From: Citrobacter phage phiNP
Reading direction: 5' to 3' (one strand)
Sequence record: OR565852
Length of the DNA: 44,932 nucleotides
Shown: positions 1,851 to 44,807 of the stretch, in pieces
How the letters are laid out: every line of letters starts with the position of its first letter
Position numbering within the stretch: the stretch's first letter is position 1
The notes under the pieces: model-generated
What the model was told of the DNA's origin: nothing
Seen by the model: the letters and a program-made list of their open reading frames with translations, nothing else
Database searches by the model: none
Position numbers and translations under genes: made by a program

Positions 1851-2429
1851 TTACTCTACTAGCTCTGGCCATTGAATGTTGGGCACATCAGTTGGTTGCA
1901 CGCGACTGAGCAATATTCGATATTTTTTCCACTCTTTCAGGCGTATCTTCTCATCATCTGTAGCCATATCTAAATCAACAGCGTCCTGTAAGGTGGCAAT
2001 GATTTCACCAGCCTGTTGGAGCTGTTCTTTCTTCTGCGATTCAGCTTCTCTGATAAATGCCTCACGCTCTGCATCGACATCATCTATCCATGCTTCTCCA
2101 TTCCACTTCTGATAGTTCCTGTCTGGTGAAATAGTTGTCACATTTGGCGGTAATGCACCAAGGGACGAAATATAAATTGGCATACCTGTTTCAGTTTCAT
2201 ACACAGTAATCCCACGATGATCTTCAACCAAAAGCCATGTATTTTCATCAATATCAAAAATGGCCGCATATCCAGCAGGAATTTCTGGTGGCGCAATATT
2301 GGTACAATTTGCAGGTAATCCTGTATATGGTGGTATATATGTATCACTCTCACCAATAAATTCATTAGTACCATCTAGTAAGTTAAACACATTAATTGTT
2401 TGTGCTTCTGCAATCATTTTAAAAGTCAT
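1851..2429 (-). CDS. Tail fibre assembly chaperone (Tfa/gpG-like).
   Basis: Located immediately downstream of the tail fibre gene, with the typical Tfa C-terminal …NIQWPELVE. Confidence 0.7.
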   Translation of the reverse strand: MTFKMIAEAQTINVFNLLDGTNEFIGESDTYIPPYTGLPANCTNIAPPEIPAGYAAIFDIDENTWLLVEDHRGITVYETETGMPIYISSLGALPPNVTTISPDRNYQKWNGEAWIDDVDAEREAFIREAESQKKEQLQQAGEIIATLQDAVDLDMATDDEKIRLKEWKKYRILLSRVQPTDVPNIQWPELVE

Positions 2430-26245: not shown

Positions 26246-27298
26246 TTATTTTTCTGGTAACGCTCTGATTTCTTCAACGGTCTGGTTAAACCGCTCTGTT
26301 TCCAGCTCGACGCCAATAGCCTTACGGCCTAAATCGATCGCCGCTTTTAACGTGGAACCGGAGCCCATGAAGAAATCAGCTACCACATCCCCGGGTCTGC
26401 TGCTCGCGCTGATGATTTGCTTCAGCATGTCAGCAGGCTTTTCGCAGGGATGTTTGCCGGGATAAAACTGGACGGGTTTATGCGTCCATACGTCGGTATA
26501 TGGCACGGCCACCGACACGGCAAAATACCGCCGAAGGGATTTGTACTCCTCCAGCAGTTCGGAATATTTACGGTTCAGTGACTGGTATGTTGCCACCAGT
26601 TGGTGATGAGGCTGCGCCAGTTCGGCACGCTGATGCTTCTCGATAGCGATCCGGGTGAAAAGCTCCTGCAATTTGAGGTAATCCGCTTCACCCGGCAGCT
26701 GCCACTGGCTGGAACCAAACCAGTGCGAAACCATGTTCTTCTTACCAGTGGCCTCGGTGATTTGTTTCGAGGTAACGCCAAGGGATTCCCGGGCATTCTG
26801 AAAATAGGTAATAAGCGGTGTCAGCACATGCTGTTTGAGTTCACCACATTTTGCCGCGTAACCATCGTCTTTGGGCTTGCATGGCCCCTGATAGTGTTCA
26901 GCAAACAGAACACGCTCAGTGGCCGGGAAATACGCGCGCAGACTTTCTTTATTGCAGCCATTCCAGCGACCGCTCGGTTTAGCCCAAATGATGTGGTTCA
27001 GGATGCTGAAGCGGTCGCGCATTAAGATTTCAATATCTGCAGCCAGCCGGTGGCCGCAAAACAGGTAAAGGCTACCGGCGGGTTTCAACACTCGCCAGAA
27101 TTCAGCCAGGCAGCGATCGAGCCAGCGAAGATAGTCTTCATCCCCTTTCCACTGGTTATCCCATCCGTTTGGCTTCACCTTGAAGTAAGGCGGATCGGTA
27201 ACAATCAGGTCGATGGAGTTATCAGGAAGGGTGGCGATGTAATGCAGGCAGTCAGCGTTGATTAACTCAACACTGTTTATTTTTACAGTATTTTTCAT
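26246..27298 (-). CDS. DNA methyltransferase, beta-class N6-adenine/N4-cytosine family (DPPY … FxGSGS order). It is the first long gene of the late operon.
   Basis: Motif IV LIVTDPPYF lies near the N-terminus and motif I DFFMGSGSTL near the C-terminus. Confidence 0.7.
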   Translation of the reverse strand: MKNTVKINSVELINADCLHYIATLPDNSIDLIVTDPPYFKVKPNGWDNQWKGDEDYLRWLDRCLAEFWRVLKPAGSLYLFCGHRLAADIEILMRDRFSILNHIIWAKPSGRWNGCNKESLRAYFPATERVLFAEHYQGPCKPKDDGYAAKCGELKQHVLTPLITYFQNARESLGVTSKQITEATGKKNMVSHWFGSSQWQLPGEADYLKLQELFTRIAIEKHQRAELAQPHHQLVATYQSLNRKYSELLEEYKSLRRYFAVSVAVPYTDVWTHKPVQFYPGKHPCEKPADMLKQIISASSRPGDVVADFFMGSGSTLKAAIDLGRKAIGVELETERFNQTVEEIRALPEK

Positions 27299-27837: not shown

Positions 27838-28533
27838 TCACATTTCCAGCGCATTAGCCACTTCCAGCCCTTCGCGCCTGATGAGGATCGTTTGCAGCGC
27901 CTGAGTGTCAAGCTCGACGAATGCCGCTTTAAATCTCGCCCAGTGCGATGCATACACACGTAACCAGGTTGAACGATCCACAGACATCATTCGCGCCAGC
28001 GCCGCACCGGCGTATTCTTTATATGTGTCATTGCTTCTGGCCGCAGCCACCTCCTGCGCTGCCAGCCAGACAAGACCGACCAGTTTTTTCACTACCCGTG
28101 ATTGCAGCTTCTTCTCTACCCTGCAATTCTGAAACTCATTCCATACATGCTGGCACATCAGCGTCTGGTACCTGAAGTTCAGATCGAAACCGTAGCAGTA
28201 ACGGATCCATGCCTGCTGGTAGTCATCCAGTGAATTGATTACCCGGCGCCACGGCGCGTAACTAAATTCCAGATCCTGCATTGGCGGGAACGGTCGCCGC
28301 CGGCTTCTCGTTTCCAGCACATAAACAGGCGTGGTTAATGCCTTCACAAGCGAGTGTCCACAGCCTTCCCCGCCCTCCAGTTCGATAAGAGGCTGCCCGC
28401 AGCGGGGCGTTTTATTTTTGTCTGCCGGTGGATGTTCGCTAAACGCCTGCAGTTGCCCCTTTGTCCCTTCAGATAAATTCGCCAGGGCGCGCTTTACTTC
28501 TATACGGGTATATTCAATGGCCTGTAAGTTCAT
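27838..28533 (-). CDS. Putative late-gene antiterminator Q.
   Basis: A 231 aa protein at the canonical position, downstream of the nin-like genes and directly upstream of the pR'/tR'-like elements and lysis cassette. Sequence alone is not diagnostic. Confidence 0.5.
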   Translation of the reverse strand: MNLQAIEYTRIEVKRALANLSEGTKGQLQAFSEHPPADKNKTPRCGQPLIELEGGEGCGHSLVKALTTPVYVLETRSRRRPFPPMQDLEFSYAPWRRVINSLDDYQQAWIRYCYGFDLNFRYQTLMCQHVWNEFQNCRVEKKLQSRVVKKLVGLVWLAAQEVAAARSNDTYKEYAGAALARMMSVDRSTWLRVYASHWARFKAAFVELDTQALQTILIRREGLEVANALEM

Positions 28534-28554: not shown

Positions 28555-29646
28555 TTACGCTTTAACAATTACGCCGATCGCCAGCGCCCGATCCAGAAAA
28601 CGAAACAGCAGTTCCAGCTGTGTGCCATATTTCTGCTCGAACGCCGCTACATCGGCATGCAATTTGTCGTGGCACTCTCTGCACAGAGGGAACACGAACA
28701 GGTCATGGGCTTTGGTAGCAGTGCCACCCATCCCATGACCGATAACATGATGCGGATCGTCTGCCGGACGGCGACAACACTCGCAGGGCTGACTTTTAAC
28801 CCAGCGCGTATACTTCTCATTCTCCCAGCGGCGGCGCTTAGGCCGTAACATGAACGACTCCGGTGATTCAGGATCTGCGCTCAATGCAATAACCCTTGGC
28901 TGCTGCTCCTGCATTACCTGCTGATTTTCCTGTGGCCTGCACCTTTTTAACGATCCAGCCGTTTTTATCCTCCTCTGCAGGGCGACGGTTGGTCGGTTAT
29001 CTGCGGCAATAATGTCGCTTTCTTTATATACAGATGGGAACGGTTCATAGGGCATCTGCATCACTCTGGCTGCCAGTTCTTCCGGAATGGCATCTGCCAC
29101 ACCGACATAAATAGCCCACCAGCACAGCTCAGCGATCGACAATTCCCGCTCGCGATTAAACCGAAGGCCGACCAGCACGGTATCAATGATCCAGTCAATA
29201 ACGTTACGGCGCGCTATACCAGCCAACAGATCGGTTGACTGCTCACGAAGTTTGTTATCGCAGTGCCAGCAAAGCATCATCGCGCCCGGGGCGTGTCGCA
29301 TGGTCACCAGCTCATGATGGTGATAATCCGAGTGCGGGTACTGACATTCACCGATATTCCGCTCAAGCCAGTGATCCAGCCCGGAGAGACTACCCGCAGC
29401 ACGGATCACCCTCTCATCAGTGAAGAATGGGATCAGCGCTTCATCCTCCGCCAGCGGCTGCCGGGCATCAGGAACACGGCCGGTTGACAGCCTGGCCATG
29501 TTCTCCGGTTCGGACTCCACCAGCACGCGCCCCGCGGAGAAAAGGCGCATTAACTCTTTGCCCGGTTTGAGCAGTACCACGCCAAGACGTGGCACAACTT
29601 CAGGGGTTAACAGCGCTCTCATGCAACCTCCCGCTGCTGGTTGCAT
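28555..29646 (-). CDS. NinG/DUF968-like protein with a C-terminal HNH/zinc-binding motif.
   Basis: The C-terminus reads …CECCRRPADDPHHVIGHGMGG…CRECHDKLH…. It occupies a nin-region position. Confidence 0.45.
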   Translation of the reverse strand: MQPAAGGCMRALLTPEVVPRLGVVLLKPGKELMRLFSAGRVLVESEPENMARLSTGRVPDARQPLAEDEALIPFFTDERVIRAAGSLSGLDHWLERNIGECQYPHSDYHHHELVTMRHAPGAMMLCWHCDNKLREQSTDLLAGIARRNVIDWIIDTVLVGLRFNRERELSIAELCWWAIYVGVADAIPEELAARVMQMPYEPFPSVYKESDIIAADNRPTVALQRRIKTAGSLKRCRPQENQQVMQEQQPRVIALSADPESPESFMLRPKRRRWENEKYTRWVKSQPCECCRRPADDPHHVIGHGMGGTATKAHDLFVFPLCRECHDKLHADVAAFEQKYGTQLELLFRFLDRALAIGVIVKA

Positions 29647-31379
29647 AACTCGGGCAGGTTGGCTTCTACCAGCGCACGGGCAAACGGGGGCGGAACGGCG
29701 TTACCGCAGCGCGCTACCTGCTTGTCTTTTGCATAGCGCTGGCCGCGATAATCACGATCGATAATGTAACCTTCAGGAAAGCCCTGGGCCTTATACAACT
29801 CATGAGGCTGCAACATGCGCATGCCAATATCGACGATCTGGTAGTCGGCACCATCAACCGTTACCAGGCCGAAGCGATCATTGGTTGTGACGGTTCCCAG
29901 CGGTTCATCCAGCGATACGCCGCTTTTTTCATTTCCGTAGTACTTCATCAGGAAGGCGCGAACCTCTCCGATATGCAGACCGCCGGCGGTCACCGTAGGC
30001 ATGGGCTGATCCACTTTTCGACCGTCTTTGCAGGTACCGCGCAGATGAACCAGGTGTGAGGTCACAACAGCATGGTGATCAGTGGTCGTAACGGTATGCG
30101 CAGGTGCATCCATAGCGGCACCCGGCCCCGTATAATTACCGCCGAAGTGTTTCGCCAGAAAGGTGGTCACCAGCTGCGACTTTCCACCACCGCCAGCGGT
30201 TACTGTTCCATTGGGTTCATCAGCGCCGTGTCCGGTACTGTTACCAAACTGGCGGGCTATCATTGGCGCCACCAGGCAGGCGCGGGACTCTTTTAACACG
30301 GTGTGGGCCGGTTTATTTATCGCCCGCGGCTTCGCCTGATATTCGCTACCACCATTACCGGCGATAAACGGGGTAACGACAGCGTATCCATGGGTTTTGG
30401 TAATAGTCTGCAGCGGACTATCAATGCCCTGCCCACGAAAGCAGTCATATGCCGTGCGGCTGCTGGTGTGATTACACTTCACAATAAACGGTGTCGGGTT
30501 GTTCAGCACAAACCGCTCAATACCACGCGCAATGCGCTTCAGCGTATTTTCCGCCAGCAGCTTTGGGCGCTCAAAAATGCTCTGGCAGGGGATTGACCAG
30601 TCGATACACTCCGCCGCGGTACGCCATGGCGCCAGCCTGCCGCTCTGAACTTCCAGCGATTTAGGATCGCCATGTGTTGGCTCTGGCCAGTGAATTTCCT
30701 CACCATCACAGCGCATGACCATGAAGAATCGCTTGCGGATCGTCGGCGCGCCGAAATCGCAGGCTCGCAGTTCGCGATAATCGATGCCGTAGCCCAGCCC
30801 GTTAATAAGGCGCTGCGCCTGCTCGCTGCCTTTAGGTACAGACAGGAACTCGCACACCTCAGACAGGGCGGGATGATCCGCAGGTATGCCGGTGGATAGC
30901 ATGCCAACAAACGCCGCGAAGGTTTCGCCCGCGCGGGATGGATCCGGGCGCATTTCGTCTGCCAGCAGCGGCCCCCACGTTTTGAACTCCTCCACGTTCT
31001 CCAGCATCATGACACGCGGGCGCTTCGCCAGCGCCCAGCGTACTACTACCCACGCCAGACCGCGAATCTCTTTTTTTACCGGCTTAGCACCCTTCGCCTT
31101 TGAGAAGTGGCGGCAATCAGGGCTAAACCAGGCCAGGCCGACCGGATTACCACCAGTGGCCGCCAGCGGATCAACGTCAAACACGGACTCGCAGTAATGC
31201 AGGGTATCGGGGTGGTTAGTTTTGTGCATAGCGATCGCGTTTTCATCGTGGTTGATGGCAATATCCACGCTGCGCCCGATCGCCAGCTCGATCCCGGTAC
31301 TCGCGCCGCCGCCACCAGCAAAGTTATCAACGATAATTTCACGCATTGACGGCTCCCTGCATGCTGTAGACCAGACCAC
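29619..31379 (-). CDS. C5-cytosine DNA methyltransferase (Dcm-like) with an expanded, repeat-containing variable region. It is probably multispecific.
   Basis: Motif I IVDNFAGGGGAS, motif IV FSPDCRHFS, motif VI MLENV and motif X CGNAVPP are all present. The variable region has about six repeats of the TRD-like element xPxxT(V/I)T(A)xGGG…(L/V)V: DSPLQTITK, NKPAHTVLK, DEPNGTVTAGGGG, DAPAHTVTTT, DQPMPTVTAGG and DEPLGTVTTN. Confidence 0.75.
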   Translation of the reverse strand: MVWSTACREPSMREIIVDNFAGGGGASTGIELAIGRSVDIAINHDENAIAMHKTNHPDTLHYCESVFDVDPLAATGGNPVGLAWFSPDCRHFSKAKGAKPVKKEIRGLAWVVVRWALAKRPRVMMLENVEEFKTWGPLLADEMRPDPSRAGETFAAFVGMLSTGIPADHPALSEVCEFLSVPKGSEQAQRLINGLGYGIDYRELRACDFGAPTIRKRFFMVMRCDGEEIHWPEPTHGDPKSLEVQSGRLAPWRTAAECIDWSIPCQSIFERPKLLAENTLKRIARGIERFVLNNPTPFIVKCNHTSSRTAYDCFRGQGIDSPLQTITKTHGYAVVTPFIAGNGGSEYQAKPRAINKPAHTVLKESRACLVAPMIARQFGNSTGHGADEPNGTVTAGGGGKSQLVTTFLAKHFGGNYTGPGAAMDAPAHTVTTTDHHAVVTSHLVHLRGTCKDGRKVDQPMPTVTAGGLHIGEVRAFLMKYYGNEKSGVSLDEPLGTVTTNDRFGLVTVDGADYQIVDIGMRMLQPHELYKAQGFPEGYIIDRDYRGQRYAKDKQVARCGNAVPPPFARALVEANLPELCNQQREVA

Positions 31380-32220
31380 CAGCCACGGTGATTATTTCGC
31401 TGGTGGGCATACGCTCAAGCCAGAGCTGATTGATGTTCGCCTTCAGCTTGTTCTGCTGGGCCAACTCCAGAGAATCCGCTCCCTCAACCTGATTGAATAC
31501 CAGGCCAACCTCCAGCGGCCAGATACGCGACTCCACTTCTGGCTGTCCCAAGCCAGCAGGCATAACGTCTTCCACCGGGGCTGGCGGCACCACTTTTTCC
31601 GCGGCAAATTGGGCCAGCGACATAAATGCCCGCCCCTTAGCCTCTAGATCACTGCGATGAATGTAGCTGAAACGCTCGCCCCGCCATGTCTTATCGAATA
31701 CCACTATGGCGCCAGCGAAAAATGCGCTGGTAGGCTGCTGTTTCTCGTCTGCCGGGATAAACCATGCAGGCAGGTCGAAGCCAATGCGGCCACGGATGAA
31801 AACAATATGATCAGCATCTTCAGGCCACCATGTTTCACTAGGTGCCGCTTTGATGAGGAACACATAGCGACCGCCCTTCTCACGCATGGCAGAGGCATAG
31901 CTCATGATATGACTCATGCCGGTGATCGCCTGCTTACCGTCGTATTGCGATCGGCTATAGGGCGGATTGCCGAACGCGGCGCCACCGATGGCGATCAGCA
32001 TTTCCGACCAATCCTGTGTCAGAGCGTTATCTTCGGCGGTGTACCAGACCGGGCATTTGGCGTTACTGTCGTCGGCGAACAAATCCAGCATCAGCGGCCC
32101 AAACATCGCATTGATGCCCCAGAACAACAGTTCCGGCGTGCGCCACTGATCGCCAACTTCTTTTAACTCGTGGACTGGCTTGCTACGTAGTTCAGCCAGC
32201 GCCAGGCAGTATTTATTCAT
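31339..32220 (-). CDS. Phage Dam-family (PF05869-like) N6-adenine DNA methyltransferase.
   Basis: …DQWRTPELLFWGINAMFGPLMLDLFADDSNAKCPVWYTAEDNAL…AFGNPPYSR… gives the TP…LF, NAKC and NPPYS signatures. The gene is translationally coupled to the replication gene (ATGA). Confidence 0.7.
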   Translation of the reverse strand: MNKYCLALAELRSKPVHELKEVGDQWRTPELLFWGINAMFGPLMLDLFADDSNAKCPVWYTAEDNALTQDWSEMLIAIGGAAFGNPPYSRSQYDGKQAITGMSHIMSYASAMREKGGRYVFLIKAAPSETWWPEDADHIVFIRGRIGFDLPAWFIPADEKQQPTSAFFAGAIVVFDKTWRGERFSYIHRSDLEAKGRAFMSLAQFAAEKVVPPAPVEDVMPAGLGQPEVESRIWPLEVGLVFNQVEGADSLELAQQNKLKANINQLWLERMPTSEIITVAGGLVYSMQGAVNA

Positions 32221-33266: not shown

Positions 33267-34001
33267 TTAGCCCCCCATCAATTCGGAGGCGTAGCGCTCG
33301 GCGATCCACTGGACGCCACGAGGTGTTACGCGGGTTTGCGTATAGGCATGACCGAAATCAGACGTGCCGGTTTTGACAGTGAACAGGCCCTCCCGCTGGC
33401 GCAGGGCATGAGGCAGCAAATTGCCGGACTGGCGGAACAAAACCTTGTCACGCACCAGTGCATCTATCATGGCTTTTTCCGGCATGTTGAGGATCTTCGC
33501 CGTCTCACGCAGGCCTTTGGCGCCGCCAGACTCTACGTAGTGGTTTACGAACGCCACCTTTGGCGCGTCCTGCTGAACCTTATGTGACAGCTGCGCATTC
33601 TGCTCTGCCATATCGGCGGCCAGGCGGAGCGCTTCGGGGAGGGTCTGGGGAATTAATGCTGTGCTTTCCAGCTCCTGCCAGCGATCCACAACCGCAGCCG
33701 TAAACTCAGGAGAAAGTCTGGCAACCAGCACCAAAGAATCGCGTTTGTTGAACCGATATTCCTGATAAACGTTGCCGTTATGCTCAAAATCGAACTGCGC
33801 CAACGGCGCGGTTAAAAGACCAGCAGCATTCAGGCGCTCAGCGGAGCGTTTGACGTCACCATGTTTACTCTGCACAAGAGCGGCGATTTCACGGCTGCTC
33901 ATTGTCACTACGCCGCCGAATGCAGGTGAAAAACCAGCAGCCTGTGCGCGATTAATCAATTGCTGTGGCATTTTGCTGACCTCCCCGGGAAATAAAGTCA
34001 C
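33267..34001 (-). CDS. Rha-family regulatory protein / antirepressor-like (Phage_pRha N-terminal domain plus KilA-C-like C-terminal domain).
   Basis: …[24 protein letters not shown]… is the Rha N-domain signature. The C-terminal ~120 aa resemble the ANT/KilA-C DNA-binding domain. The start may be an internal Met. Confidence 0.5.
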
Positions 34002-34149
34002 CCACAGCCCACTCGGTAAAGCTGTGGTTCACGAGTGCCCAGCCGCCGGGTACTCTTACGGCATAGCAATACGTGACATCGCCTTTGCCACCACGAACTG
34101 GCAGCGCGCGAAGTTGCGAACGCTGGCTATTTGCGGTTAAATTGCTCAT
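33952..34149 (-). CDS. Small hypothetical protein (66 aa).
   Basis: ORF coupled to the stop of the upstream gene (ATGA at 34146-34149). Confidence 0.2.
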
Positions 34150-34703
34150 GCGGATTTCTCCATACACATAGATTTATCTGCCACGACGCCCGGAGCTGCA
34201 CACTCGCGGGCGTCACTCTTTTCTGGCTGGCAGAAAACGCGGAAAAGCAGCGTTAAATGCTCCTGCCACTTAGCCATGACCTGATAGCTGTTCTCCTCTA
34301 TCTGCGCCCTTTCGGCATCGTCAATCACGCCGTCTGCTGTCGCCTTTCGCACATACTGAGAATGACGCCCGATCCATTCGACCGACTCCATCAGACGTTG
34401 ATTGATGTCGGCGTTATCAACTTCTTCCACGTCCGCCAGCGGCACGAATACGCCGTTTGAATGGCGCGCTATGGCATCGGCGATGTGGTTTGAGCCACCA
34501 GCGCTCTGCAGCACCATTGCCCAGCCCAGCGGGAAAACCTGGTCGCCGTCGGCACGCAGGCGGTTAAAGAGCGAATTTTCCGTAACATCAAGCCATTCAG
34601 CCGCCTCGGCGTATCCGCCAGGCAGTTCAGCGATCGTTTTTTTAATTGCTGCCACCAGCCAGGCTGGCTGACGTTCAACTTTCCACTGCGGTTCGTTACC
34701 CAC
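34146..34703 (-). CDS. Early regulatory protein at the cII position (185 aa), possibly YdaT-like.
   Basis: It lies immediately downstream of and overlaps the Cro-like gene. No clear family motif is visible. Confidence 0.3.
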
Positions 34704-34959
34704 GGCTATCCCCTTTTTTCTGTGGTGCAGCTTTAACGCTCTTCCCTGTAGGGTTTACATAACGCTGCGGGTACAAAATCTGGAGTTCGTCTATCTGGCC
34801 CGAATAAAACTTCACCAGCCTTTCAGCTACATCGAGAGAAGCAATTTGCTGTCCCCGTTCAATTCGGCTTAAGTTGGCAGGATCAATGCCCACCAAGTTG
34901 GCGACATATGAGAGTGTTAAATTTTGCGATTTTCGCAAATTTCTTAGCGGTGATTGCAT
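34696..34959 (-). CDS. cro: Cro-like XRE-family HTH repressor.
   Basis: …NLTLSYVANLVGIDPANLSRIERGQQIASLDVAERL… is an XRE HTH. The gene is divergent from cI across an operator-rich 98-bp region. Confidence 0.65.
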   Translation of the reverse strand: MQSPLRNLRKSQNLTLSYVANLVGIDPANLSRIERGQQIASLDVAERLVKFYSGQIDELQILYPQRYVNPTGKSVKAAPQKKGDSRG

Positions 34960-35057
34960 AAAGCCCCCTATAATTGCGCAATACGCATATTAATGTGTAC
35001 TTACGACTTGCGCAAGTTGCTTTGCATATCACGCAAAAACAACCTGTAATAGAACGC
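34960..35057. promoter_or_regulatory. OR-like immunity control region with divergent promoters and repeated TTGCGCAA-type operator half-palindromes.
   Basis: AATTGCGCAATACGCAT (34970-34986), CTTGCGCAAGTTGC (35008-35021) and TCACGCAAAAAC (35029-35040) lie between the cro and cI starts. Confidence 0.5.
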
Positions 35058-35753
35058 ATGAACATAGGAAACCGCATTAGAGAATTGCGCCTCGCAAGAG
35101 GCATGAAAATTTCTGACCTTGCTGATGCTGTTGGTATTGACGGCGCGAACGTTTCTCGCGTAGAGACCGGTAAGCAAAAGTCATTTACTGAACAATCGCT
35201 TAGCAAATATGCAAATGCGCTCGGCGTTGATGTTGCTGAACTCTTTACACCTTCCATAAATGAAACTACTGTATACAAATCCAGTGAGAATAATCCAGTT
35301 TATGGAGAGGATGACCCGGTGTTTAGAGTCGAAATGCTTGATGTCAGTGCCAGCGCTGGCATGGGTTTTATACAGGGTAGTGATGTCATCGATGTCATCA
35401 GATCGATTGAATACAACAGCGAACGGGCGGTCGCTCTGTTTGGTGGAAGAACGCCAGATACCGTTAAAGTGATCAACGTTCGCGGTGATAGTATGGCTGA
35501 TACTATAGAGCCAGGTGACCTAATCTTTGTTGATGTTTCAATTAATGAATTTGATGGTGATGGCATTTATGTGTTTGGTTTTGACGAGAAAATTTATGTC
35601 AAACGGTTACAGATGATTCCCGATAAAATTCTGGTGATATCTGATAATCCCAAATACAGAGAGTGGTCAGTTGATCAATCTAACGAAGACCGTTTTTATG
35701 TGTTTGGGAAAGTGATGCTTAGCCAATCACAAGCAATGAAAAGACACGGATAA
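35058..35753 (+). CDS. cI: CI-like repressor (N-terminal HTH plus C-terminal S24 LexA-like autopeptidase).
   Basis: The HTH is …IRELRLARGMKISDLADAVGIDGANVSRVETGKQ…. The S24 catalytic region is …VRGDSMADTIEPGDLIFVD…, with the catalytic Lys in …VKRL…. The track start at 34974 is probably an over-extension. Confidence 0.75.
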   Translation: MNIGNRIRELRLARGMKISDLADAVGIDGANVSRVETGKQKSFTEQSLSKYANALGVDVAELFTPSINETTVYKSSENNPVYGEDDPVFRVEMLDVSASAGMGFIQGSDVIDVIRSIEYNSERAVALFGGRTPDTVKVINVRGDSMADTIEPGDLIFVDVSINEFDGDGIYVFGFDEKIYVKRLQMIPDKILVISDNPKYREWSVDQSNEDRFYVFGKVMLSQSQAMKRHG

Positions 35754-35768: not shown

Positions 35769-35794
35769 GAGCCGCCGCTTAATGGCGGCTTTTT
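35769..35794 (+). terminator. Intrinsic terminator after cI (GCCGCC-GCTTAAT-GGCGGC-TTTTT).
   Basis: A 6-bp GC stem followed by a U-tract, 16 nt after the cI stop. Confidence 0.55.
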
Positions 35795-35803
35795 CATACC
35801 CTA

Positions 35804-35859
35804 AATATTGCGAATTACGCATTTTATTACTTGCGTAATTCGCAATATTATTTTATCTT
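35804..35859 (+). promoter_or_regulatory. pL/OL-like element: a 17-bp perfect inverted repeat overlapping a rightward promoter (TTGCGT-17-TATCTT).
   Basis: The repeat arms are AATATTGCGAATTACGC at 35804-35820 and GCGTAATTCGCAATATT at 35833-35849. The arm sequence ATTGCGAATTACGCAT is near-identical to the OR site ATTGCGCAATACGCAT. The -35 box is at 35831-35836 and the -10 box at 35854-35859. Confidence 0.5.
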
Positions 35860-36745
35860 CATTCCATCAACAGCGAACAGGCAGGACGCCCACGAAGTAG
35901 CCGCCCGGGGCATATGAAGGCCGGGATGATTCGCTCAGAACATGGCGAAAGCCGAAAGACTTGAAGGCGGTTTTCTCAGGTTGCGCGCTAAAGCATAGCG
36001 GGGAGAACCTGGGGCGGAGAGCAAACCCCGCGATTCAGGACATGATCGCCTGTGCATACCAATAAGCCGTCTGGCAGCGTAACTGCTCTTTACATTGGCA
36101 CCGGCAAAGTGGCGCCGCTGAACCGAGGCTGGTGGATCGTAAAACCGCAGGAGCAAGCAACAAACGGTAGTCCGTATGGAGAAAAATCCGTTGAGTAAGG
36201 GGCCTGGCCGGAACCGTAACCGGCACACAACGATGAGAGCATTGACGAGCAAGGTTTAATGTCCGGTTCGATTCCAGACACCACGAAGCGGTGGCAATGG
36301 GCAGGGAAAAGGTCCGTTCAATTCGGACACCGGCAGTGCTCTCTTCGTTGTGGAGTATACAAGCGTATTGCAGCGCCGGTCGACGCAAAGACCCGTAAAT
36401 CGACTGAGCCGTAGTTACTGGCGGCCAATACCAAAACAGAGCGGCGGGAAGTAAGTAGGGGTAGCGCCCTGGTGTCACAACCAAATCACGCTTAGGACCG
36501 TGATAACCGTAGTACCAATATTGCTGTGTGTAGTCTTGGCGGTACCAGTTCCATCCCTTGAAGTCCCTGGTACCGCCCTTTTTACACAAGAGACAAGAGC
36601 ATCACCGGGCGACGGGCTCATAACCCAATCCACCCGGGCGTTAAGGAAGTGGTCTTCTCACCCATGACCAGCGCGCAGGTGCTCTTTTCTGTTGTGTATG
36701 GAGAAACTTACGGCGGCGGCAGCCGCTTAACCGAGAGGAAATGCT
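35860..36745 (+). ncRNA. ORF-free ~0.87 kb transcribed leader / candidate structured non-coding RNA downstream of the pL-like promoter.
   Basis: No plus-strand ORF of 60 aa or more is present. Hand-checked ATGs give peptides of 18 aa or fewer. Composition is phage-like. There are many local hairpins, including T-arm-like GTCCG-TTCAATT-CGGAC at ~36313-36329. Confidence 0.3.
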
Positions 36746-37117
36746 ATGAGCAATGATCGCATGACCGTAGTACCCGATTTTCTGGGTGAGCTGGACGCCG
36801 GCGTGTTCATGAACAAAATCGCCGCCGCGCTTAATACCACCGCGCTGGGTGTTCTAAATAACGGCACCAAAGGCAAAGTTGTTCTCACCTTTGATTTTGA
36901 GCGTATGGGGAATTCCGTTGAAGAGAAGCGCGTCAAGATCAAGCACAAGCTGAATTACAGCACCCCGACGCCGCGCGGTAAAGCCTCCGAAGAGGACACC
37001 ACTGAAACGCCAATGTGGGTTAACAAAGGCGGCAAGCTCACCATCCTGCAGGAGGATCAGGGGCAATTGTTCAGTATCAACGGCGCCACAGACGGAAAGC
37101 TTAAAGCGGCTCAGTGA
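36746..37117 (+). CDS. YfdP-like prophage protein (123 aa).
   Basis: First gene of a block syntenic with E. coli CPS-53 yfdPQRST. An AGGAAA RBS is present. Confidence 0.4.
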   Translation: MSNDRMTVVPDFLGELDAGVFMNKIAAALNTTALGVLNNGTKGKVVLTFDFERMGNSVEEKRVKIKHKLNYSTPTPRGKASEEDTTETPMWVNKGGKLTILQEDQGQLFSINGATDGKLKAAQ

Positions 37118-37173: not shown

Positions 37174-38001
37174 ATGTCTCAGGTAGACAGCGGTACTTTT
37201 AAGCAGGTTAAAGATCTGGTTCTTTCTGGTTATCACCTGAATGATATTAACGGCCTGGCTTGCCCAACAGCATTACTCCCGGAAGAAACTCGCGTTGAAA
37301 GCCTCGAGCGCTTTTCTCTTGAGCGCTTCCGTTTCCGTGGGGCCATGACCACAACCAGCATTGATGATTTTGCCCGTTATTCTAAAGGCTACGCCAGTAC
37401 CGAGGAACCTGCTCGCTGCTTTATTGATGCGGACAATATGACTGCGCGATCCGTGTTCAATATCGGCACGCTGGATAATCCGGGCCATGCTGATAACGTT
37501 GCTGCAATCACCCTGAAGCAGACTGCGCCTTTCCGCGCGCTGCTGGCGATCAACGGCGACCGCCTGAAGCAAAAGCAAATCGCTGAATGGCTGGAAGACT
37601 GGAGTGATTATCTGCTGGCCTTTGATGCTGACGGAAATACCATGCAAATTTCACAGGCTGCTCAGGCTGTTCGACGCATCACTATCCAGCAGGCCACCCA
37701 ACAAGATCATGAAGACGGTGATTTCAGCGGGAAAAAATCGCTGATGCAGAGTGTTGAGGCCAGCAGCAAAGATGTTATGCCTGTAGCGTTTGAGTTCAAA
37801 TGCGTGCCATACGAAGGGCTTGGTGAGCGTGCATTCAGCCTGCGCAATAGTCTGCTCACTGGTGACGAACCGCGTTTTGTACTGCGCATTGTTCAACTGG
37901 AAGCGCAGGAAGAAGCGATCGCCAACGAATTCCGCGACCTGCTGATCGGCAAATTCGACGGCGAGCCAGTGGAAACCTTTATCGGTAACTTTAAAGCGTA
38001 A
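37174..38001 (+). CDS. YfdQ-like DUF2303 protein.
   Basis: A ~275 aa protein following the yfdP-like gene. MSQVDSGTFKQVKD… has an AAGGAA RBS. The track start at 37156 is a TTG. Confidence 0.4.
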   Translation: MSQVDSGTFKQVKDLVLSGYHLNDINGLACPTALLPEETRVESLERFSLERFRFRGAMTTTSIDDFARYSKGYASTEEPARCFIDADNMTARSVFNIGTLDNPGHADNVAAITLKQTAPFRALLAINGDRLKQKQIAEWLEDWSDYLLAFDADGNTMQISQAAQAVRRITIQQATQQDHEDGDFSGKKSLMQSVEASSKDVMPVAFEFKCVPYEGLGERAFSLRNSLLTGDEPRFVLRIVQLEAQEEAIANEFRDLLIGKFDGEPVETFIGNFKA

Positions 38002-38139
38002 TTGCTCAGCCTTAATTGCCCTGCCCCGCGGGGCAATTAGTGAAGCGTAATTCATTTAAATATCGCCATCTGGCGAGGGATTCGTGCAACCAAAAATCAG
38101 CCGAAGGTGCAGCTGCGAATAAATGGAGAAATAAAACCG

Positions 38140-38682
38140 ATGAGCTACATACAGACATTATCAGGCAAGAAATTCGACTATGTGAATGCCACTGTTGACG
38201 ATATTGAGATCGAAGATATAGCGACCGCGCTTTCCCATATCTGCCGCTTTGCCGGCCACCTGCCGGAGTTCTACTCCGTGGCCCAACACTCAGTTCTGTG
38301 CAGCCAGCTGGTAGAGCCTGAGTTTGCCTTTGAAGCGCTGATGCACGACGCCGCAGAAGCGTATTGTCAGGATATTCCCGCACCGCTTAAAGCCCTGCTG
38401 CCGGACTACCGCCGGATTGAGGCGTTTGTCGACGAACTGATCCGCTTTAAATTCAATCTGCCGCTCACACAGTCTCCTGTAGTGAAATATGCCGATCTGA
38501 CAATGCTGGCTACCGAACGCCGGGATCTGGACATTGACGACGGTACATCGTGGCCCATCCTCGAAGGAATCCCCACCAGCGACCTTATCCAGATCGCTCC
38601 TCTTCGCCCGGGCCAGGCTTACGGACTTTTCATGACCCGCTTTAACGAACTGATGGAGCTGCGCGCATGCAACACCATATGA
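38140..38682 (+). CDS. HD-domain 5'-deoxynucleotidase (YfdR-like).
   Basis: The HD motif is …LSHICRFAGHLPEFYSVAQHS…ALMHDAAEAY…. It sits at the yfdR position. A GGAGA RBS precedes the ATG at 38140. Confidence 0.55.
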   Translation: MSYIQTLSGKKFDYVNATVDDIEIEDIATALSHICRFAGHLPEFYSVAQHSVLCSQLVEPEFAFEALMHDAAEAYCQDIPAPLKALLPDYRRIEAFVDELIRFKFNLPLTQSPVVKYADLTMLATERRDLDIDDGTSWPILEGIPTSDLIQIAPLRPGQAYGLFMTRFNELMELRACNTI

Positions 38683-38867: not shown

Positions 38868-39190
38868 ACGAACAAACTACAGTTAAACACCTCCATTTCT
38901 ACGGTGCCAGCGATGATCTGCTGGAATGCGAAGGCGCGATCCGCGAGGAGATTGGTTGCTATAACTCTCCAGGCATCTATCACCTCAAATCCGCCGAGGG
39001 TGAAATGCAGGTTGTCGGTTATTACCTCGACTCCGGGCTGTGGAGCATCGGAATCAGCCAGGTCGCCGAAGATACGCCGCTGCCAGCGTGGCCCGTCACT
39101 TACGCCATGCATGAGCGTGGTTACAGTGTCCAGCTCACCATCACTGTGCCGGACGACGCCATTCTGGTTTTGTCAGAGGAAGATGAATGA
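38864..39190 (+). CDS. Hypothetical protein (108 aa), in the yfdT position.
   Basis: Coupled ORF in the early-left operon. Confidence 0.3.
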   Translation: MNEQTTVKHLHFYGASDDLLECEGAIREEIGCYNSPGIYHLKSAEGEMQVVGYYLDSGLWSIGISQVAEDTPLPAWPVTYAMHERGYSVQLTITVPDDAILVLSEEDE

Positions 39191-39918
39191 GCATTACCCT
39201 GCATAACGCCGACTGCTTCGATGTTTTTCCGACGATTGCCAGCGGTTCCGTAGACATGGTGTGTGCGGATATTCCCTACGGTACCACGCAGTGCTGCTGG
39301 GATTCGGTGCTTGACCTCGAGGTGATGTGGCATGAACTGTACCGCATCGCCAAGCCGTCAGCGGCAATTGTCCTGTTTTCGGCTCAACCGTTTACCGCGG
39401 TGCTGGTCGGCAGCAACCTGGCGGACTGGCGATCCGAGTGGATTTGGGAAAAAGGCAACGCCACCGGCTTCCTTAATGCCAAAAAACAGCCGTTGCGTGC
39501 CCATGAAAATATAGAGGTGTTTTATCGTCGCCAGCCGACATACAACCCGCAGTTTACCCATGGTCATGCGCGCAGAACATCGAAGCGCAAAACCGTCAAT
39601 TCGGAGTGCTACGGCAAAGCGCTGACGCTGACTAAGTATGACTCAACCAGCCGGTACCCGCGCGATGTGCAGTTTTTCTCGAGTGACAAGCAAACCGGTA
39701 ATTTCCATCCCACCCAGAAGCCGCTGGCGCTGGTTCAGTACCTGATCGAGACCTACAGCAACCCCGGCGATACGGTGCTGGATTTCACAATGGGAAGCGG
39801 TACCGCAGGAGTCGCCTGCCTGCGTGTCGGGCGCTGCTTTATTGGCATTGAGAAAGACACCTCAATATTTCAGGTCGCGCGTCATCGTATAGGGACTAAG
39901 CAGGAGCATGCAGCATGA
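39187..39918 (+). CDS. DNA methyltransferase, beta-class (DIPY variant of D/NPPY … FxGSGT), probably N6-adenine.
   Basis: Motif IV is …VCADIPYGT… and motif I is …DFTMGSGTAG…. Between them is an ParB-less 243 aa core. The protein is expressed from the early-left operon. Confidence 0.65.
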   Translation: MSITLHNADCFDVFPTIASGSVDMVCADIPYGTTQCCWDSVLDLEVMWHELYRIAKPSAAIVLFSAQPFTAVLVGSNLADWRSEWIWEKGNATGFLNAKKQPLRAHENIEVFYRRQPTYNPQFTHGHARRTSKRKTVNSECYGKALTLTKYDSTSRYPRDVQFFSSDKQTGNFHPTQKPLALVQYLIETYSNPGDTVLDFTMGSGTAGVACLRVGRCFIGIEKDTSIFQVARHRIGTKQEHAA

Positions 39919-40721: not shown

Positions 40722-40928
40722 ATGCTGAGCCTCGATTGTGTTCCCATCTCAACTTATTGCAAAGAGACAGGCGAAACTCCTGATGCGATCAACAAGCGCG
40801 TACAGCGCGGTGTGTGGCGTGAAGGGGTTCAGGTGCTGAAAGTCGAAGGCGTTAAGGAGAGATGGATAGATCTTAGTGAGGTTGCAAAATGGGCCAGACA
40901 GAATCGCCTAAACTCCCGCGCGGCGTAA
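40722..40928 (+). CDS. xis: Excisionase-like protein (Xis).
   Basis: A 68 aa basic protein immediately upstream of and overlapping int. A GGAGA RBS is present. Sequence begins MLSLDCVPISTYCKETGETPDAINKRVQRGVW…. Confidence 0.5.
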   Translation: MLSLDCVPISTYCKETGETPDAINKRVQRGVWREGVQVLKVEGVKERWIDLSEVAKWARQNRLNSRAA

Positions 40929-42055
40929 CCATCAGGAAACATCGCAACGGTCAAACCATCAATATTACTTTTACATATAAAGGGGTGAAATGCCGTGAGC
41001 CTCTTTCTAATCTGGACGTAACCCCTAAAAATATCAAATACGCCGAGCGCACACTCGGCGAAATCCATAACAAGATCGAAAGGGGAACGTTTGTTTACGC
41101 GGAATACTTTCCCCGTTCTACCCGATTAAAAATTTTCGGAAACGCTGCCGCAGGAAAAACGGTGAAGATGTATCTGGATGAGTATCTGGTGATCTGCGAA
41201 ACGAGGAAGCTTTCCCCTTCGACAATAGGCGGGTACAAGAAATGCCGAAGCGCATTGTCATCACTTCATATTTATCCTGCAAGTGAGTTGACGCCGGCTG
41301 CATTGAAGACATGGATCCAGAACCAGAAAACGACATTGAAGACCATCCGAAACCAGTTGTCATTCCTGCGTTCTGCATTGGATGAAGCAGTGACAGATGG
41401 TGTGCTTCAGATTAACCCTGTATCTCTGGTAACAGCCTCACGATACCAAAGTGATAAATCAGAGGCAGAAAGTAGTTATGTGGTTGATCCGCTATCACCA
41501 GCAGAAGTTGATGCTTTGCTCTCTGCTACTGGCAATAAGCAGTGGGAGAATCTTTTCCGGTTCGCGATACAAACAGGGCTGCGTAGTTCCGAATTGTGTG
41601 CTCTTCGTTGGCGTGATATCGACTTTGTAGGGAAGACTGCCCATATCCAGAGCGCCAGTGTTGTTGGTGTGATCAAAGGGACCAAGACAAAAGCAGGTAC
41701 CCGTAAAGTTGAACTCACAGATGAAGCAATGTCGGCTCTGATAAATCAGAAACCGTTCACGTTCATGAAGGGCGCTACTGTCTTTGAGGATCCAAAGACC
41801 AATAAGCCGTGGGCAAGTGCTGATGCAATTAGAAAAAAGGCATGGGTGCCGACATTGCGAAAGGCTGGTATTCGGTACAGAAACCCATATCAGACTAGAC
41901 ATACATTCGCCACATGCCATATCAGCCGGGGAACAAACTTGTTCTGGCTTGCGACTCAAATGGGACATAAAGGCCCAGAGATGCTTTTCCGTCACTACGG
42001 CTCATATCTGAAGGAATATGATGGACAAACAAGCCTGAAGAAGATAAAAATATAA
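40889..42055 (+). CDS. int: Tyrosine integrase (lambda Int family, IntS-like).
   Basis: The catalytic region …RHTFATCHISRGTNLFWLATQMGHKGPEMLFRHYGSY… carries the R…HxxR…Y signature. The gene is transcribed towards attR. Confidence 0.8.
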   Translation: MGQTESPKLPRGVTIRKHRNGQTINITFTYKGVKCREPLSNLDVTPKNIKYAERTLGEIHNKIERGTFVYAEYFPRSTRLKIFGNAAAGKTVKMYLDEYLVICETRKLSPSTIGGYKKCRSALSSLHIYPASELTPAALKTWIQNQKTTLKTIRNQLSFLRSALDEAVTDGVLQINPVSLVTASRYQSDKSEAESSYVVDPLSPAEVDALLSATGNKQWENLFRFAIQTGLRSSELCALRWRDIDFVGKTAHIQSASVVGVIKGTKTKAGTRKVELTDEAMSALINQKPFTFMKGATVFEDPKTNKPWASADAIRKKAWVPTLRKAGIRYRNPYQTRHTFATCHISRGTNLFWLATQMGHKGPEMLFRHYGSYLKEYDGQTSLKKIKI

Positions 42056-43925: not shown

Positions 43926-44807
43926 ATGCGTTTTAACACCCCACTTCGTTATCCTGGCGGCAAAGGCAAGCTTTCTAATTTCATGCTTCGGATTATTGAA
44001 GATAATAAGCTTTCGCCTATACATTATGCAGAGCCATATGCTGGGGGTGCTGGTTTAGCGCTGAAGCTGTTACACTTAAATGTAGCTGAAAAAATCATTC
44101 TTAATGATATTAATATCTCAGTTTATGCTTTTTGGCACAGTGTATTAAATAATGCAGATCATTTATGTGCTTTAATTGAGGATACTGAAGTCACAATGGA
44201 TGAGTGGTTCAAACAGAAAGAAATAATTAATCATCCAAGAGACCATGATATGCTAACAATTGGTTTTTCTACCTTTTTTCTTAATAGAACAAATCGTTCT
44301 GGAATATTAAAAGGCGGTGTAATTGGTGGTAAAAATCAAGAAGGGCAATGGAAACTTGATGCTCGTTATAACAAGAGCGATTTAATTTCTCGGATTCAGA
44401 AAATATCAAAAAACCGTGAAAGAATAGATTTGTATAACATGGATGCAATTGATTTCATAAAAAAAATAGTTGTTCAATTGCCTAAAAAATCATTAACATA
44501 TTTAGATCCGCCATATTATATAAAAGGTAAGGGATTATATATCAATCATTATGAACATAGTGACCATGTTAATGTTGCAAAAGTAGTGCAGCATGATATT
44601 AAAACACCGTGGATTGTTTCTTACGATAACACTCCTGAGATCCAAGGTATGTATAAGGCATCATCATTAGTGTATGGAATAAACTACAGTGCTCAAGATC
44701 GATATAAGGGCTCAGAAGTGATGTTCTTCAGTAAACGATTGAAAGTCTTTAAAACCGATGATCCAACTAAGGTAAAAGCACCTACCAATAAAAATGCTAT
44801 GAGCTAG
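43926..44807 (+). CDS. Dam-like (D12 class, alpha) N6-adenine DNA methyltransferase in an AT-rich cargo cassette.
   Basis: …LRYPGGKGKL… matches the Dam KWAGGK motif. Motif I is …AEPYAGGAGL… and motif IV is …YLDPPYY…. A TTGACA -35 element lies upstream at 43906. Confidence 0.7.
   Translation: MRFNTPLRYPGGKGKLSNFMLRIIEDNKLSPIHYAEPYAGGAGLALKLLHLNVAEKIILNDINISVYAFWHSVLNNADHLCALIEDTEVTMDEWFKQKEIINHPRDHDMLTIGFSTFFLNRTNRSGILKGGVIGGKNQEGQWKLDARYNKSDLISRIQKISKNRERIDLYNMDAIDFIKKIVVQLPKKSLTYLDPPYYIKGKGLYINHYEHSDHVNVAKVVQHDIKTPWIVSYDNTPEIQGMYKASSLVYGINYSAQDRYKGSEVMFFSKRLKVFKTDDPTKVKAPTNKNAMS

Follow-up and report, generated by a model that had tools for sequence, protein, structure and literature searches.

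The early leader of Citrobacter phage phiNP is an array of separately conserved RNA modules, with a candidate antitermination RNA at its 5′ end

Introduction

The put RNAs of HK022-type phages allow protein-free read-through of terminators, which is blocked by mutations in the zinc-binding domain of the β′ subunit, and King et al. reportedly described newly found put-like RNAs in 2011. Leader transcripts of phages can also be a source of small RNAs, since the P4 CI RNA and the C4 RNA of P1 and P7 are cut from such transcripts by RNase P. In HK022 and HK639, which are N-less lambdoid phages, put is a structured RNA of ~65–70 nt with which the pL transcript begins (PMC9378689), and it forms two long stem-loops in a V shape. 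For lambdoid phages that have neither N nor a classical put, the literature consulted has only speculated that polymerase might cross the early operons by using put.

Here, we analyzed a 44,932-nt stretch of Citrobacter phage phiNP (OR565852; hereafter, the window), in which a first-pass annotation made from the sequence alone had singled out a long ORF-free leader as a candidate large structured RNA. We find that the interval after the repressor gene is a genuine noncoding leader that consists of several folded RNA modules, each conserved separately. The first of these, module A, resembles the put RNA of HK022 in its place, immediately after the point where the pL transcript of an N-less lambdoid phage begins, but folds differently, as a closing stem around two hairpins. 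It is a concrete, compact, and testable candidate for early-operon read-through in N-less, put-less phages, and the leader may show how lambda-like phages lacking N turn on their early genes.

Results

An ORF-free leader follows the repressor gene

The cI-like gene is followed by its own intrinsic terminator, an OL-type operator, and a pL-type promoter (Table 1). The operator combines a perfect inverted repeat (I4), at first put at 17 bp and here measured at 18 nt, with a direct repeat (D7), the latter being the arm that shares 85% identity with the OR-side site at 34973–34992. The promoter is present as originally read, but its description as near-consensus was too strong, since it agrees with the consensus at 7 of 12 positions and is missed by a consensus scan. 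When the window was aligned with 56 other loci, the TTGACA and –10 elements of other immunity types shared its columns. With an operator palindrome and a pL-type promoter 3′ of the cI terminator, the site is indeed the pL/OL equivalent, and transcription probably starts near 35866.

The plus strand holds no ORF of at least 60 aa before the yfdP-like gene at 36746, as had been noticed; the longest one listed has 55 aa, and the three frames contain 8, 10, and 16 stops between 35866 and 36745. The GC content (0.53–0.56) agrees with a composition that is not AT-rich. Missing ORFs alone are not significant because random sequence yields ORF-free stretches that are equally long. We judged the interval to be real because of its conservation and base-pair covariation across hundreds of related loci, the best of which are ~80% identical over 34–38 kb of the window. 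Parts of the leader are present in 3,041 of 5,426 complete Escherichia coli genomes. Nor is a 0.9-kb leader as unusual as first thought, ST64B and Stx2a_1447 having unannotated gaps of equal length. Annotation pipelines now leave such regions blank or fill them with spurious ORFs.

Relatives bear a gene after module A (orf33 in SfV, an ORF of ClpX-type zinc-finger family in an E. coli prophage), and PHROG profiles give short matches to ORFs of the interval, both of which would be expected of the remains of a protein-coding gene, whether an N-like pseudogene or the 184-aa ORF on the minus strand. These matches, however, cover only 20–30 residues and lie on both strands of the same DNA. Proteins encoded by genuine first ORFs (SfV orf33, the ClpX-type zinc-finger family, and the rest) reached at best E = 0.02 by tblastn in the leader; significant matches were given only by two short ORFs whose own sequences include parts of modules B and D. 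We therefore rejected a degraded N gene, as well as a broken copy of a gene intact in homologues: genes after module A elsewhere belong to at least 51 unrelated families, none of which has left remnants here. The minus-strand ORF, whose composition had looked implausible, is spurious. It has no Pfam match, and among 144 loci with similarity, none keeps it open over at least 150 aa free of stops and frameshifts, so that it is broken in every homologue. Length differences between homologues of the region are not multiples of three, which, together with the compensatory changes described below, argues for selection at the RNA level and makes a decayed gene extremely improbable.

Table 1. Features of the phiNP immunity region and pL leader (window coordinates)
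Feature	Position	Strand	Details
cI-like repressor ORF	35059–35753		within listed ORF 34974..35753
Intrinsic terminator of cI-like repressor gene	35774–35789	+	hairpin GCCGC-TTAA-GGCGGC, then TTTTT
OL-type operator	35804–35849	.	perfect 18-nt inverted repeat 35804–35821/35832–35849, overlaps –35 element
pL-type promoter	35831–35859	+	TTGCGT 35831–36, 17-nt spacer, TATCTT 35854–59
Module A, 5′-terminal structured RNA	35873–35937	+	P1 35873–78 with 35932–37; small hairpin 35881–83 with 35889–91; P2 35905–09 with 35922–26; joining regions invariant
Module A2, multihairpin domain	35938–36152	+	directly joined to A in the window
Minus-strand ORF, 184 aa	36035–36589	–	judged spurious
Linker with small hairpins	36153–36225	+	lowest conservation within the leader; matches limited to the L008/L120 locus type
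Module B, four-helix RNA	36226–36353	+	alignment A2, fold z-score –3.2; P1 (~18 bp) 36226–44 with 36334–52; P2, T-arm-like, 36261–66/36274–79, loop TTCGATT (GG-TTCGATT-CC, 36261–36279); P3, variable hairpin, 36281–84/36291–94; P4, T-arm-like, 36312–16/36324–28, loop TTCAATT (GTCCG-TTCAATT-CGGAC, 36312–36328)
Module B2, conserved multihairpin domain	36354–36483	+	ends in GGTGTCACAAC
Module C, sRNA-like unit	36520–36583	+	seed ATTGCTGTGTGTAGTCTT 36520–37; intrinsic terminator, stem 36538–48 with 36567–77, T-run 36579–83
Module D, structured 5′ UTR of yfdP-like gene	36584–36745	+	alignment A4, inverted repeat I1; P1 ~36584–36603 with 36677–36696; inner hairpins; then GC hairpin and Shine–Dalgarno sequence
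YfdP family gene, first protein-coding gene of operon	36746–37117	+	
YfdQ/DUF2303 gene	37174–38001		3′ of YfdP family gene
YfdR-type phosphohydrolase gene	38107–38682		3′ of YfdQ/DUF2303 gene

Module A starts the transcripts of many unrelated promoters

The fold of module A, a 6-bp closing stem enclosing a 3-bp hairpin and a 5-bp hairpin, is supported by covariation. In alignment A1, compensatory changes occur at 10 of the 14 pairs, 97.2% of the cells are paired, and none of 500 shuffles reaches the covariation score. A further 77 distinct genomic copies, fitted to the model derived from A1, contain 253 compensatory cells and score 0.579 for covariation vs. 0.157 when shuffled.

Across many unrelated promoter/operator types, module A begins ~5–8 nt past the inferred start of transcription, and it follows 76 promoter/operator sequence types across Enterobacterales. 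A sigma-70–like promoter was found within 80 nt of the module in 117 of 153 distinct upstream sequences, vs. 4 of 192 control windows, and the –10 element ends 11–14 nt before P1 in 73 of these 117 promoters. In annotated phages, the module always comes directly after the repressor gene. The core sequence was found at 88 sites among species-representative genomes, nearly all of them from Enterobacterales, and in 50 phage records, including Shigella serotype-converting phages and the Salmonella prophage ST64B.

The leader is a mosaic of modules

The order of the modules is fixed (repressor, pL, A, [A2], B, [B2], C, D, yfdP), and modules turn up independently and in differing combinations in other phages. 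Structure runs unbroken between the start of transcription and the first codon of yfdP, as it would if all 870 nt formed a single unit comparable to OLE, GOLLD, or ROOL. Yet the module borders are sharp and each module occurs without the others: some loci have only A followed by D, Stx2a_1447-type phages of the family have B, C, and D without A, and A2 is found elsewhere 400–800 nt away from A. Moreover, no long-range pairing between modules was seen. The independence and varied combination of the modules thus speak against the one large RNA first proposed, which we regard as very improbable.

That RNA structure is abundant was nevertheless a sound observation. The search for covariation that had been recommended found base pairs kept through compensatory changes in modules A, B, and D, where covariation was quantified, and in A2 and B2, where it was seen by inspection. 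Module A2 is common to 16 distinct sequences, with several hairpins showing such changes, including a 12-bp stem. Module B2 has eight distinct homologues and four hairpins with compensatory changes and is also present in Klebsiella phages (86% identity).

Scanned with Rfam 15, neither the window nor the pL leaders of eight relatives gave a match at the gathering threshold. When the limit was relaxed to E of up to 10, the leader gave only chance-level matches besides weak ones to DicF and RprA, and no intron family, which leaves nothing in favor of an intron-like element. No searchable paper contains the literal sequences of modules A, B, or C. Rfam has none of the modules of the leader, and A, B, and D would be new RNA families with measured covariation. 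The cassette organization suggests that noncoding RNAs are traded among phages like accessory genes.

Module B contains two T-arm–like hairpins

Module B has a closing stem of the same kind and length as module D. In the alignment of 69 distinct sequences, compensatory changes occur at 16 of its 34 pairs, 94.6% of the cells are paired, and the covariation score is not reached in any of 500 shuffles. The two tRNA T-arm–like stem-loops that had been picked out by eye both exist and both covary, and the module would add a natural RNA made of two T-loop hairpins. Only the T-arm features of a tRNA are present: ARAGORN called no tRNA or tmRNA in the window, and the Rfam tRNA model had no match in the leader at E up to 10. 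Three loci have a genuine tRNA-Arg(TCT) gene that directly adjoins the 3′ end of module B.

In topology, module B resembles the tRNA-like Y RNA YrlA (PMC4201824): in both, a long terminal stem is followed by a T-arm, then by a hairpin whose sequence varies, and lastly by a third, conserved hairpin. It differs in that its third hairpin has a second T-loop and no D-loop, and it has no Rfam match. This likeness, the match of both hairpins to a tRNA T-arm (5-bp stem, TTCRATT loop), the adjoining tRNA genes, and the exchange of cassettes among phages would all suit a role in trans. The modules, chiefly the double–T-arm module B, would then be cargo made early after induction, acting as tRNA mimics or decoys for host enzymes that recognize tRNA or for defense nucleases that target it, and the leader would be mainly a launch pad for small RNAs, not a regulator of the operon. 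We consider this distinctly unlikely. ARAGORN and Rfam find neither a tRNA nor a Y RNA here, no target is known, none of the ORFs annotated at 24.8–44.8 kb is Ro60-like, and module B keeps a fixed position in the leader instead of being mobile across the genome.

Modules C and D precede the yfdPQR genes

Module C looks like a small RNA made of a seed and a terminator (fold z-score of –4.3). Its 40 distinct homologues keep the seed, the stem, and the U-tail, whereas the upper part of the stem varies or is expanded; some homologues have an entirely different seed. The 18-nt seed is identical to a stretch of the consensus of the host sRNA RprA, AUUGCUGUGUGUAGUCUU, but module C is not a member of that family (RF00034), scoring 23.6 bits vs. 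a gathering threshold of 70, with the match confined to the part just before the terminator. Like DicF, from the dicBF operon of the Qin prophage, it is a seed-plus-terminator unit in a repressor-controlled early operon, and the terminators are alike, but the seed is different and the score of 20.5 bits compares with a threshold of 48 (RF00039). Other prophage sRNAs that we considered (AgvB, AsxR, and the Pas family) either are located elsewhere in prophages or belong to Rfam families with no match here.

In ST64B, STnc1310 is a noncoding RNA defined by RNA sequencing that increases upon peroxide and NO shock along with the two genes downstream of it (PMC7067206). We found that it maps within the homologous cI-to-yfdP leader and ends in the U-tract of a terminator. 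It is a different module, however, as BLAST of the phiNP leader against the ST64B locus aligned nothing in the STnc1310 stretch.

Module D lies upstream of yfdP in nearly every locus, and alignment A4 shows compensatory changes at 11 of its 36 predicted pairs. The genes that follow were assigned as yfdP, yfdQ, and yfdR type by PHROG 204, 210, and 318, Pfam DUF2303, and the RefSeq names in a related E. coli prophage.

Discussion

Taken together, these findings are compatible with an explanation to which we give about an even chance, namely that this is the untranslated pL-operon leader of an N-less lambdoid prophage of the SfV/ST64B/yfdPQR type, a portable array of RNA modules in which A is a put-like element acting in cis. 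Once the repressor leaves OL, RNA polymerase would transcribe module A first. Folding on the nascent transcript, A would act in cis on the elongation complex as the put RNA of HK022 does, and polymerase could then pass through the 0.8 kb of the leader that is not translated, as well as the terminator of module C, to reach yfdPQR, xis, and int. Transcripts halted at C might yield a seed-plus-terminator sRNA, by termination there or by later processing. The long stems of the cassettes may be sites for double-strand–specific processing and the T-arm–like hairpins of module B may be recognized as tRNA-like, which together would release stable small RNAs, whereas module D would set the translation of yfdP. 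From all this, we infer that A acts on polymerase like put, though outside the put family, and that the cassettes and module C give rise to small RNAs. The functions proposed for modules A2, B, B2, and D are guesses. Two of the options originally listed, an antitermination RNA and an sRNA cluster, come closest to this picture; the degraded N gene, the intron, and the single large RNA fall away.

Read-through appears to be needed here because a strong intrinsic terminator, that of module C, sits 160 nt before yfdP; the ST64B leader has two terminators of this sort. Positional equivalence with put is supported by one locus (L201), where a classical put-like element takes the place of A behind the same type of promoter and an identical stretch of 14 initial transcribed bases. 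The place in the operon is that of lambda nutL and N, with the same need to pass terminators and reach distal genes through int, but this system lacks an N homologue and a conserved boxA and boxB. PHROG annotation found no N-like gene in the operons scanned, the only antiterminator being a late Q-like gene. Using lambda N, P22 gp24, and HK022 Nun as tblastn queries, we found no N or Nun homologue in the window or in any fetched locus except for HK022's own Nun. No conserved boxA followed by a boxB hairpin was found either. Three TGCTCT-type motifs were examined and set aside: the best, boxA-like TGCTCTTTACA at 36084, is not kept in A2 homologues, and the other two are the 3′ strands of cassette stems.

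Several observations count against antitermination by module A. 1) It has no similarity to put: BLAST against HK022 and HK639 put aligned nothing, covariance model R1 for module A had no match in either locus at E up to 10, and nothing similar to the annotated "M3-like RNA" of HK639 was found in the leader. 2) The only copy that R1 detects in the window is the one in the leader, with no second one on the pR side. 3) Two home-made scanners, run on 63–68 genomic loci, found no excess of terminators downstream of A over the antisense strand, with strong intrinsic terminators within 1.2 kb in 14 loci for sense and 16 for antisense among 63 genomic loci; the terminator argument thus draws on individual cases (this window, ST64B, and SfV). 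4) There are relatives without A. 5) In L201, put and A are both present in one rearranged operon.

Some of this would sit comfortably with a module A that is not a self-sufficient antiterminator but a promoter-proximal RNA site for a protein, which could be a host factor or a nut-like partner whose gene lies elsewhere in the phage, or else a 5′ stabilizer shielding the leader from 5′-end–dependent decay. The lack of terminator enrichment and the location at the extreme 5′ end suit both versions, and joining regions that are invariant would be expected of a specific binding surface. About nine loci have, after A, a small ORF whose N terminus is rich in arginine (MNAAQRRKAYRK...) and reminiscent of N. 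Against a protein partner stand the many unrelated families of the following gene, which may even be absent as in the window, the missing N or Nun homologue, and the missing boxA. A stabilizer, for its part, could be a simple hairpin and would need no ~30 invariant unpaired bases. We consider either role unlikely.

A more far-reaching version of the put-like proposal, which we consider less likely than not, is that module A represents a new class of cis-acting antiterminator RNA, unlike put in sequence and fold, that enables early gene expression in the N-less branch. The rest of the leader would then consist of exchangeable, processed cassettes bracketed by a common stem, one of them a double–T-loop tRNA mimic acting on the host tRNA machinery or on tRNA-targeting defense. 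The N-less lambdoid branch in question comprises SfV, ST64B, ZF40, SPN3UB, LLS-like phages, and many prophages.

For release of small regulatory RNAs directed by tRNA-like features of a leader, the P4 CI and P1/P7 C4 RNAs offer a precedent, but they have no sequence relation to the leader studied here. C4/isrK is absent from the window at the Rfam gathering threshold. In the relatives SfV, ST64B, and Stx2a_1447, C4 and isrK are located on the pR side.

The leader heads the early-left operon and is non-coding

The window holds a lambdoid prophage, and its gene layout on both sides of the leader therefore places the leader at the head of the early-left operon (table). The sequence elements named in the first-pass annotation are all present. 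The cI terminator lies at 35774-35789, the perfect inverted repeat is 18 nt long (35804-35821 / 35832-35849), and one repeat arm is 85% identical to an OR-side site. The promoter called near-consensus does consist of TTGCGT, a 17-nt spacer and TATCTT (ending at 35859), but with only 7 of 12 consensus positions matched it does not deserve that label. In an alignment of the window promoter with 56 other loci, its columns are shared by the TTGACA and -10 boxes of other immunity types.

The leader is as ORF-poor as first described: the longest listed plus-strand ORF has 55 aa, and the plus-strand frames of 35866-36745 contain 8, 10 and 16 stops. Since 880 nt without an ORF is what random sequence is expected to give, the case for the leader rests on conservation and not on the gap. 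A 184-aa minus-strand ORF was rejected, having no Pfam match and being intact in none of 144 loci with similarity. ORFs that follow module A, the first module of the leader, represent at least 51 families unrelated to one another. No remnant of genuine first-ORF proteins was found in the window's leader by tblastn, the only significant matches coming from two short ORFs overlapping modules B and D, and module A2 adjoins A exactly at the module border. N or Nun homologues (queries lambda N, P22 gp24 and HK022 Nun) are absent from the window and all fetched loci except for HK022's own Nun. L070 and about eight other loci have a 70-aa ORF immediately 3' of module A; it begins MNAAQRRKAYRKHPK, and its arginine-rich N-terminus recalls the RNA-binding motif of N proteins. 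The window lacks this ORF.

Features of the window, and contigs in which module B meets a tRNA gene
Feature	Position	Strand	Remark
Antirepressor, O-like replication gene, several methyltransferases, Q-like late antiterminator, lysis genes			behind cII-like gene, minus-strand side
Q-like late antiterminator	27838-28533
cII-like gene	34146-34703	minus
cro-like gene	34696-34959	minus
cI-like repressor	35059-35753	plus	inside ORF listed 34974..35753
Module A	35866/9-35935		piece borders in yfdP contigs
Module A2	35938-36141		piece borders in yfdP contigs
Module B	36219-36353		piece borders in yfdP contigs
Module B2	36347-36481		piece borders in yfdP contigs
Module C	about 36520-36590		piece borders in yfdP contigs
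Module D	36585-36745		piece borders in yfdP contigs
YfdP-, YfdQ- (DUF2303), YfdR-like genes, small genes, methyltransferase, exonuclease fragment, xis, int		plus	downstream of leader
int	40889-42055	plus	
B + tRNA-Arg(TCT)	L188:8573-8781
B + tRNA-Arg(TCT)	L090:4399-4607
B + tRNA-Arg(TCT)	L192:630-838

The leader is a mosaic of modules in constant order

BLAST against public phages and complete E. coli genomes returned no record covering at least 80% of the leader; sharply bounded pieces of it, mostly unannotated, occur in 113 phage records and 3041 of 5426 E. coli genomes. On plasmids, presumably phage-plasmids, there are 539 E. coli places matching leader parts. We defined the modules from 80 fetched viral contigs that have this yfdP gene in common. 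Another 119 contigs, selected for module B, never depart from the order repressor, A, (A2), B, (B2), C, D, yfdP, yfdQ, while single modules come and go and spacing differs. The phages SfV, ST64B and Stx2a_1447 share the architecture of the window's leader, which in the latter two corresponds to unannotated gaps of ~0.8 kb.

Module A is a portable RNA element at the start of pL transcripts

Module A comprises ~65 nearly invariant nt, and the promoter/operator directly upstream differs completely among loci. It folds as a closing stem of 6 bp around two hairpins, one of 3 bp and one of 5 bp with a 12-nt loop. Compensatory changes affect 10 of the 14 pairs in 57 distinct sequences, where 97.2% of cells are paired; shuffles and slid registers all fall far from the observed score. 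Pairing is kept even in ZF40, SPN3UB, mEp237 and an Aeromonas phage, where the stem sequences are wholly different. A covariance model built from this first set hits the window once and HK022 and HK639 not at all.

An exact-match scan of species-representative genomes located the invariant core in 88 places, with hosts almost all Enterobacterales, from Xenorhabdus and Yersinia to Enterobacter, Citrobacter, Pantoea and Pectobacterium. Two copies outside this order, in assemblies labelled Chryseobacterium sp. and Pseudomonas lundensis, may be contamination or real transfer. All 80 loci fetched from the core scan match the model. In this second set 253 cells are compensatory, and the covariation score is 0.579 (0.157 when shuffled). 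Its pair counts lean toward the first structure since the sequences were aligned to the model derived from it, and the 3-bp hairpin had no room to vary, its bases being fixed by the search pattern. Upstream of A, 117 of 153 distinct sequences contain a sigma-70-like promoter, versus 4 of 192 control windows; in 73 of these 117 the -10 element ends 11-14 nt before A's stem, and 76 promoter/operator sequence types are represented. In annotated phages A lies directly 3' of the repressor gene. A is thus a portable RNA element found at the 5' end of pL transcripts.

Structured cassettes and candidate small RNAs follow module A

Module B consists of an 18-bp stem around three hairpins, with 16 of 34 pairs compensatory and 94.6% of cells paired in 69 distinct sequences. 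The T-arm-like hairpins of the first-pass annotation are real: B's first and third hairpins are exact T-arm look-alikes, each closed by a G-C pair and carrying a TTCRATT loop. The second varies in sequence and length, its pairing always kept. Invariant joining strands, including AAGG and UGGGCAGGG, are candidate caps for both T-loops. Neither ARAGORN nor Rfam calls module B. Its topology recalls YrlA, a tRNA-like Y RNA, although B has no D-loop and the ORFs annotated nearby, from 24.8 to 44.8 kb, include no Ro60-like gene. In three contigs (table), a genuine tRNA-Arg(TCT) gene on the same strand overlaps the last bases of B's closing stem, and RNase P cutting of this abutting tRNA would cleave exactly at B's 3' edge.

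Inspection of 16 distinct A2 and 8 distinct B2 sequences shows compensatory changes in several hairpins of each. Of D's 36 predicted pairs, 11 are compensatory. The strands of D's closing stem, ACACAA.AGA.AAGAGCAUC / GGUGCUCUU.UCU.GUUGUGU, are closely resembled by those of B's stem, CACAACGAUGAGAGCAUUG / CAGUGCUCUCUUCGUUGUG. When the loci were searched for this stem pattern, at least three more interior classes turned up between stems of this type, and CACAAC is repeated at module junctions. We read this as a probable design of exchangeable cassettes, whose stems may be sites of RNase III-type processing, joints for recombination, or both.

In module C, a single-stranded stretch of 18 conserved nt leads into a GC-rich stem of 11 bp and then a U-run. 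Seed, stem and tail are retained in homologues, the stem top being variable or enlarged by up to ~30 nt; a minority have a different seed. In the window (36520-36537) the seed matches at every base the RprA consensus AUUGCUGUGUGUAGUCUU, which lies just upstream of the RprA terminator, and a prophage sRNA with this seed might be a mimic or competitor of RprA. The terminator of C resembles that of DicF, which likewise belongs to a defective lambdoid prophage and lies in an early operon under repressor control. Rfam scores of C for RprA and DicF are both far below threshold; given the shared operon setting and these scores, the resemblance to DicF is good in kind and membership is not established.

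STnc1310 is a published ncRNA of the Salmonella prophage ST64B (D23580 coordinates 2099207-2099280). With the repressor and yfdP genes as reference points for transferring coordinates, it falls at positions 2800-2873 of our ST64B locus, inside the equivalent leader and ending in the U-tract of a terminator hairpin; a second, C-like terminator lies ahead of yfdP. Upon peroxide or nitric-oxide shock, STnc1310 is reported to go up along with the two genes downstream of the repressor (PMC7067206).

Module A as a putative antiterminator

The leader is a non-coding, selected RNA structure that opens the pL operon, with A transcribed first and a strong terminator between pL and the first gene. We propose that A would alter elongation in cis, as put does, and that polymerase would survive a long untranslated stretch otherwise inviting Rho and cross the terminator; C would give rise to a trans-acting sRNA, and the cassettes would be processed into stable RNAs. 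The position of A, its independence from immunity type and downstream cargo, and the lack of N, Nun or classical put argue for antitermination. Against it stand a fold unrelated to put, the lack of a pR-side copy, relatives without A, and the finding of no terminator enrichment downstream of A. Further support comes from contig L201 (reverse strand, ~1370-3070), where the pL type that carries A elsewhere, with the same first 14 transcribed bases, is joined directly, in place of A, to a classical put-like element that shares 94% identity with HK639 putL across 33 nt. An opposite-strand 304-aa ORF, a module C terminator fragment, a truncated ST64B-like promoter and then A follow. L201 is a recombinant holding both elements, and is only suggestive because it is rearranged and also carries A further downstream.

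The first-pass annotation had proposed an Rfam scan of the leader; when run, it matched no module to any Rfam 15 family. Phage and RefSeq records leave the modules blank or call them short hypothetical ORFs on either strand, and their sequences are absent from searchable papers. The modules therefore appear to be undescribed RNA families, and we regard the leader built of them as a phage early-leader RNA with predicted antiterminator, sRNA and processing functions.

Other features of the prophages

Rfam C4 antisense RNA and isrK lie on the pR side, beside the antirepressor, in SfV (L001:316-504), Stx2a_1447 (L003:46-234) and ST64B (L209:335-523, minus); the window has an antirepressor gene (33267-34001) and no match to either. 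SPN3UB has a strong isrB match (L086:3263-3350, minus; 99 bits), antisense to the early-left operon ~700 nt after module A. The HK639 record annotates an "M3-like RNA" (37910-37969) directly after the cII-like gene, where the window has a 145-nt gap before the antirepressor gene (34002-34145, minus); BLAST matches this RNA to nothing in the window or the fetched loci. Finally, five window ORFs match DNA methyltransferase families (26246-27298, 29619-31379, 31339-32220, 39187-39918 and 43926-44807), one of them also matching a PAPS-reductase family, an unusually heavy methylase load for a single prophage.
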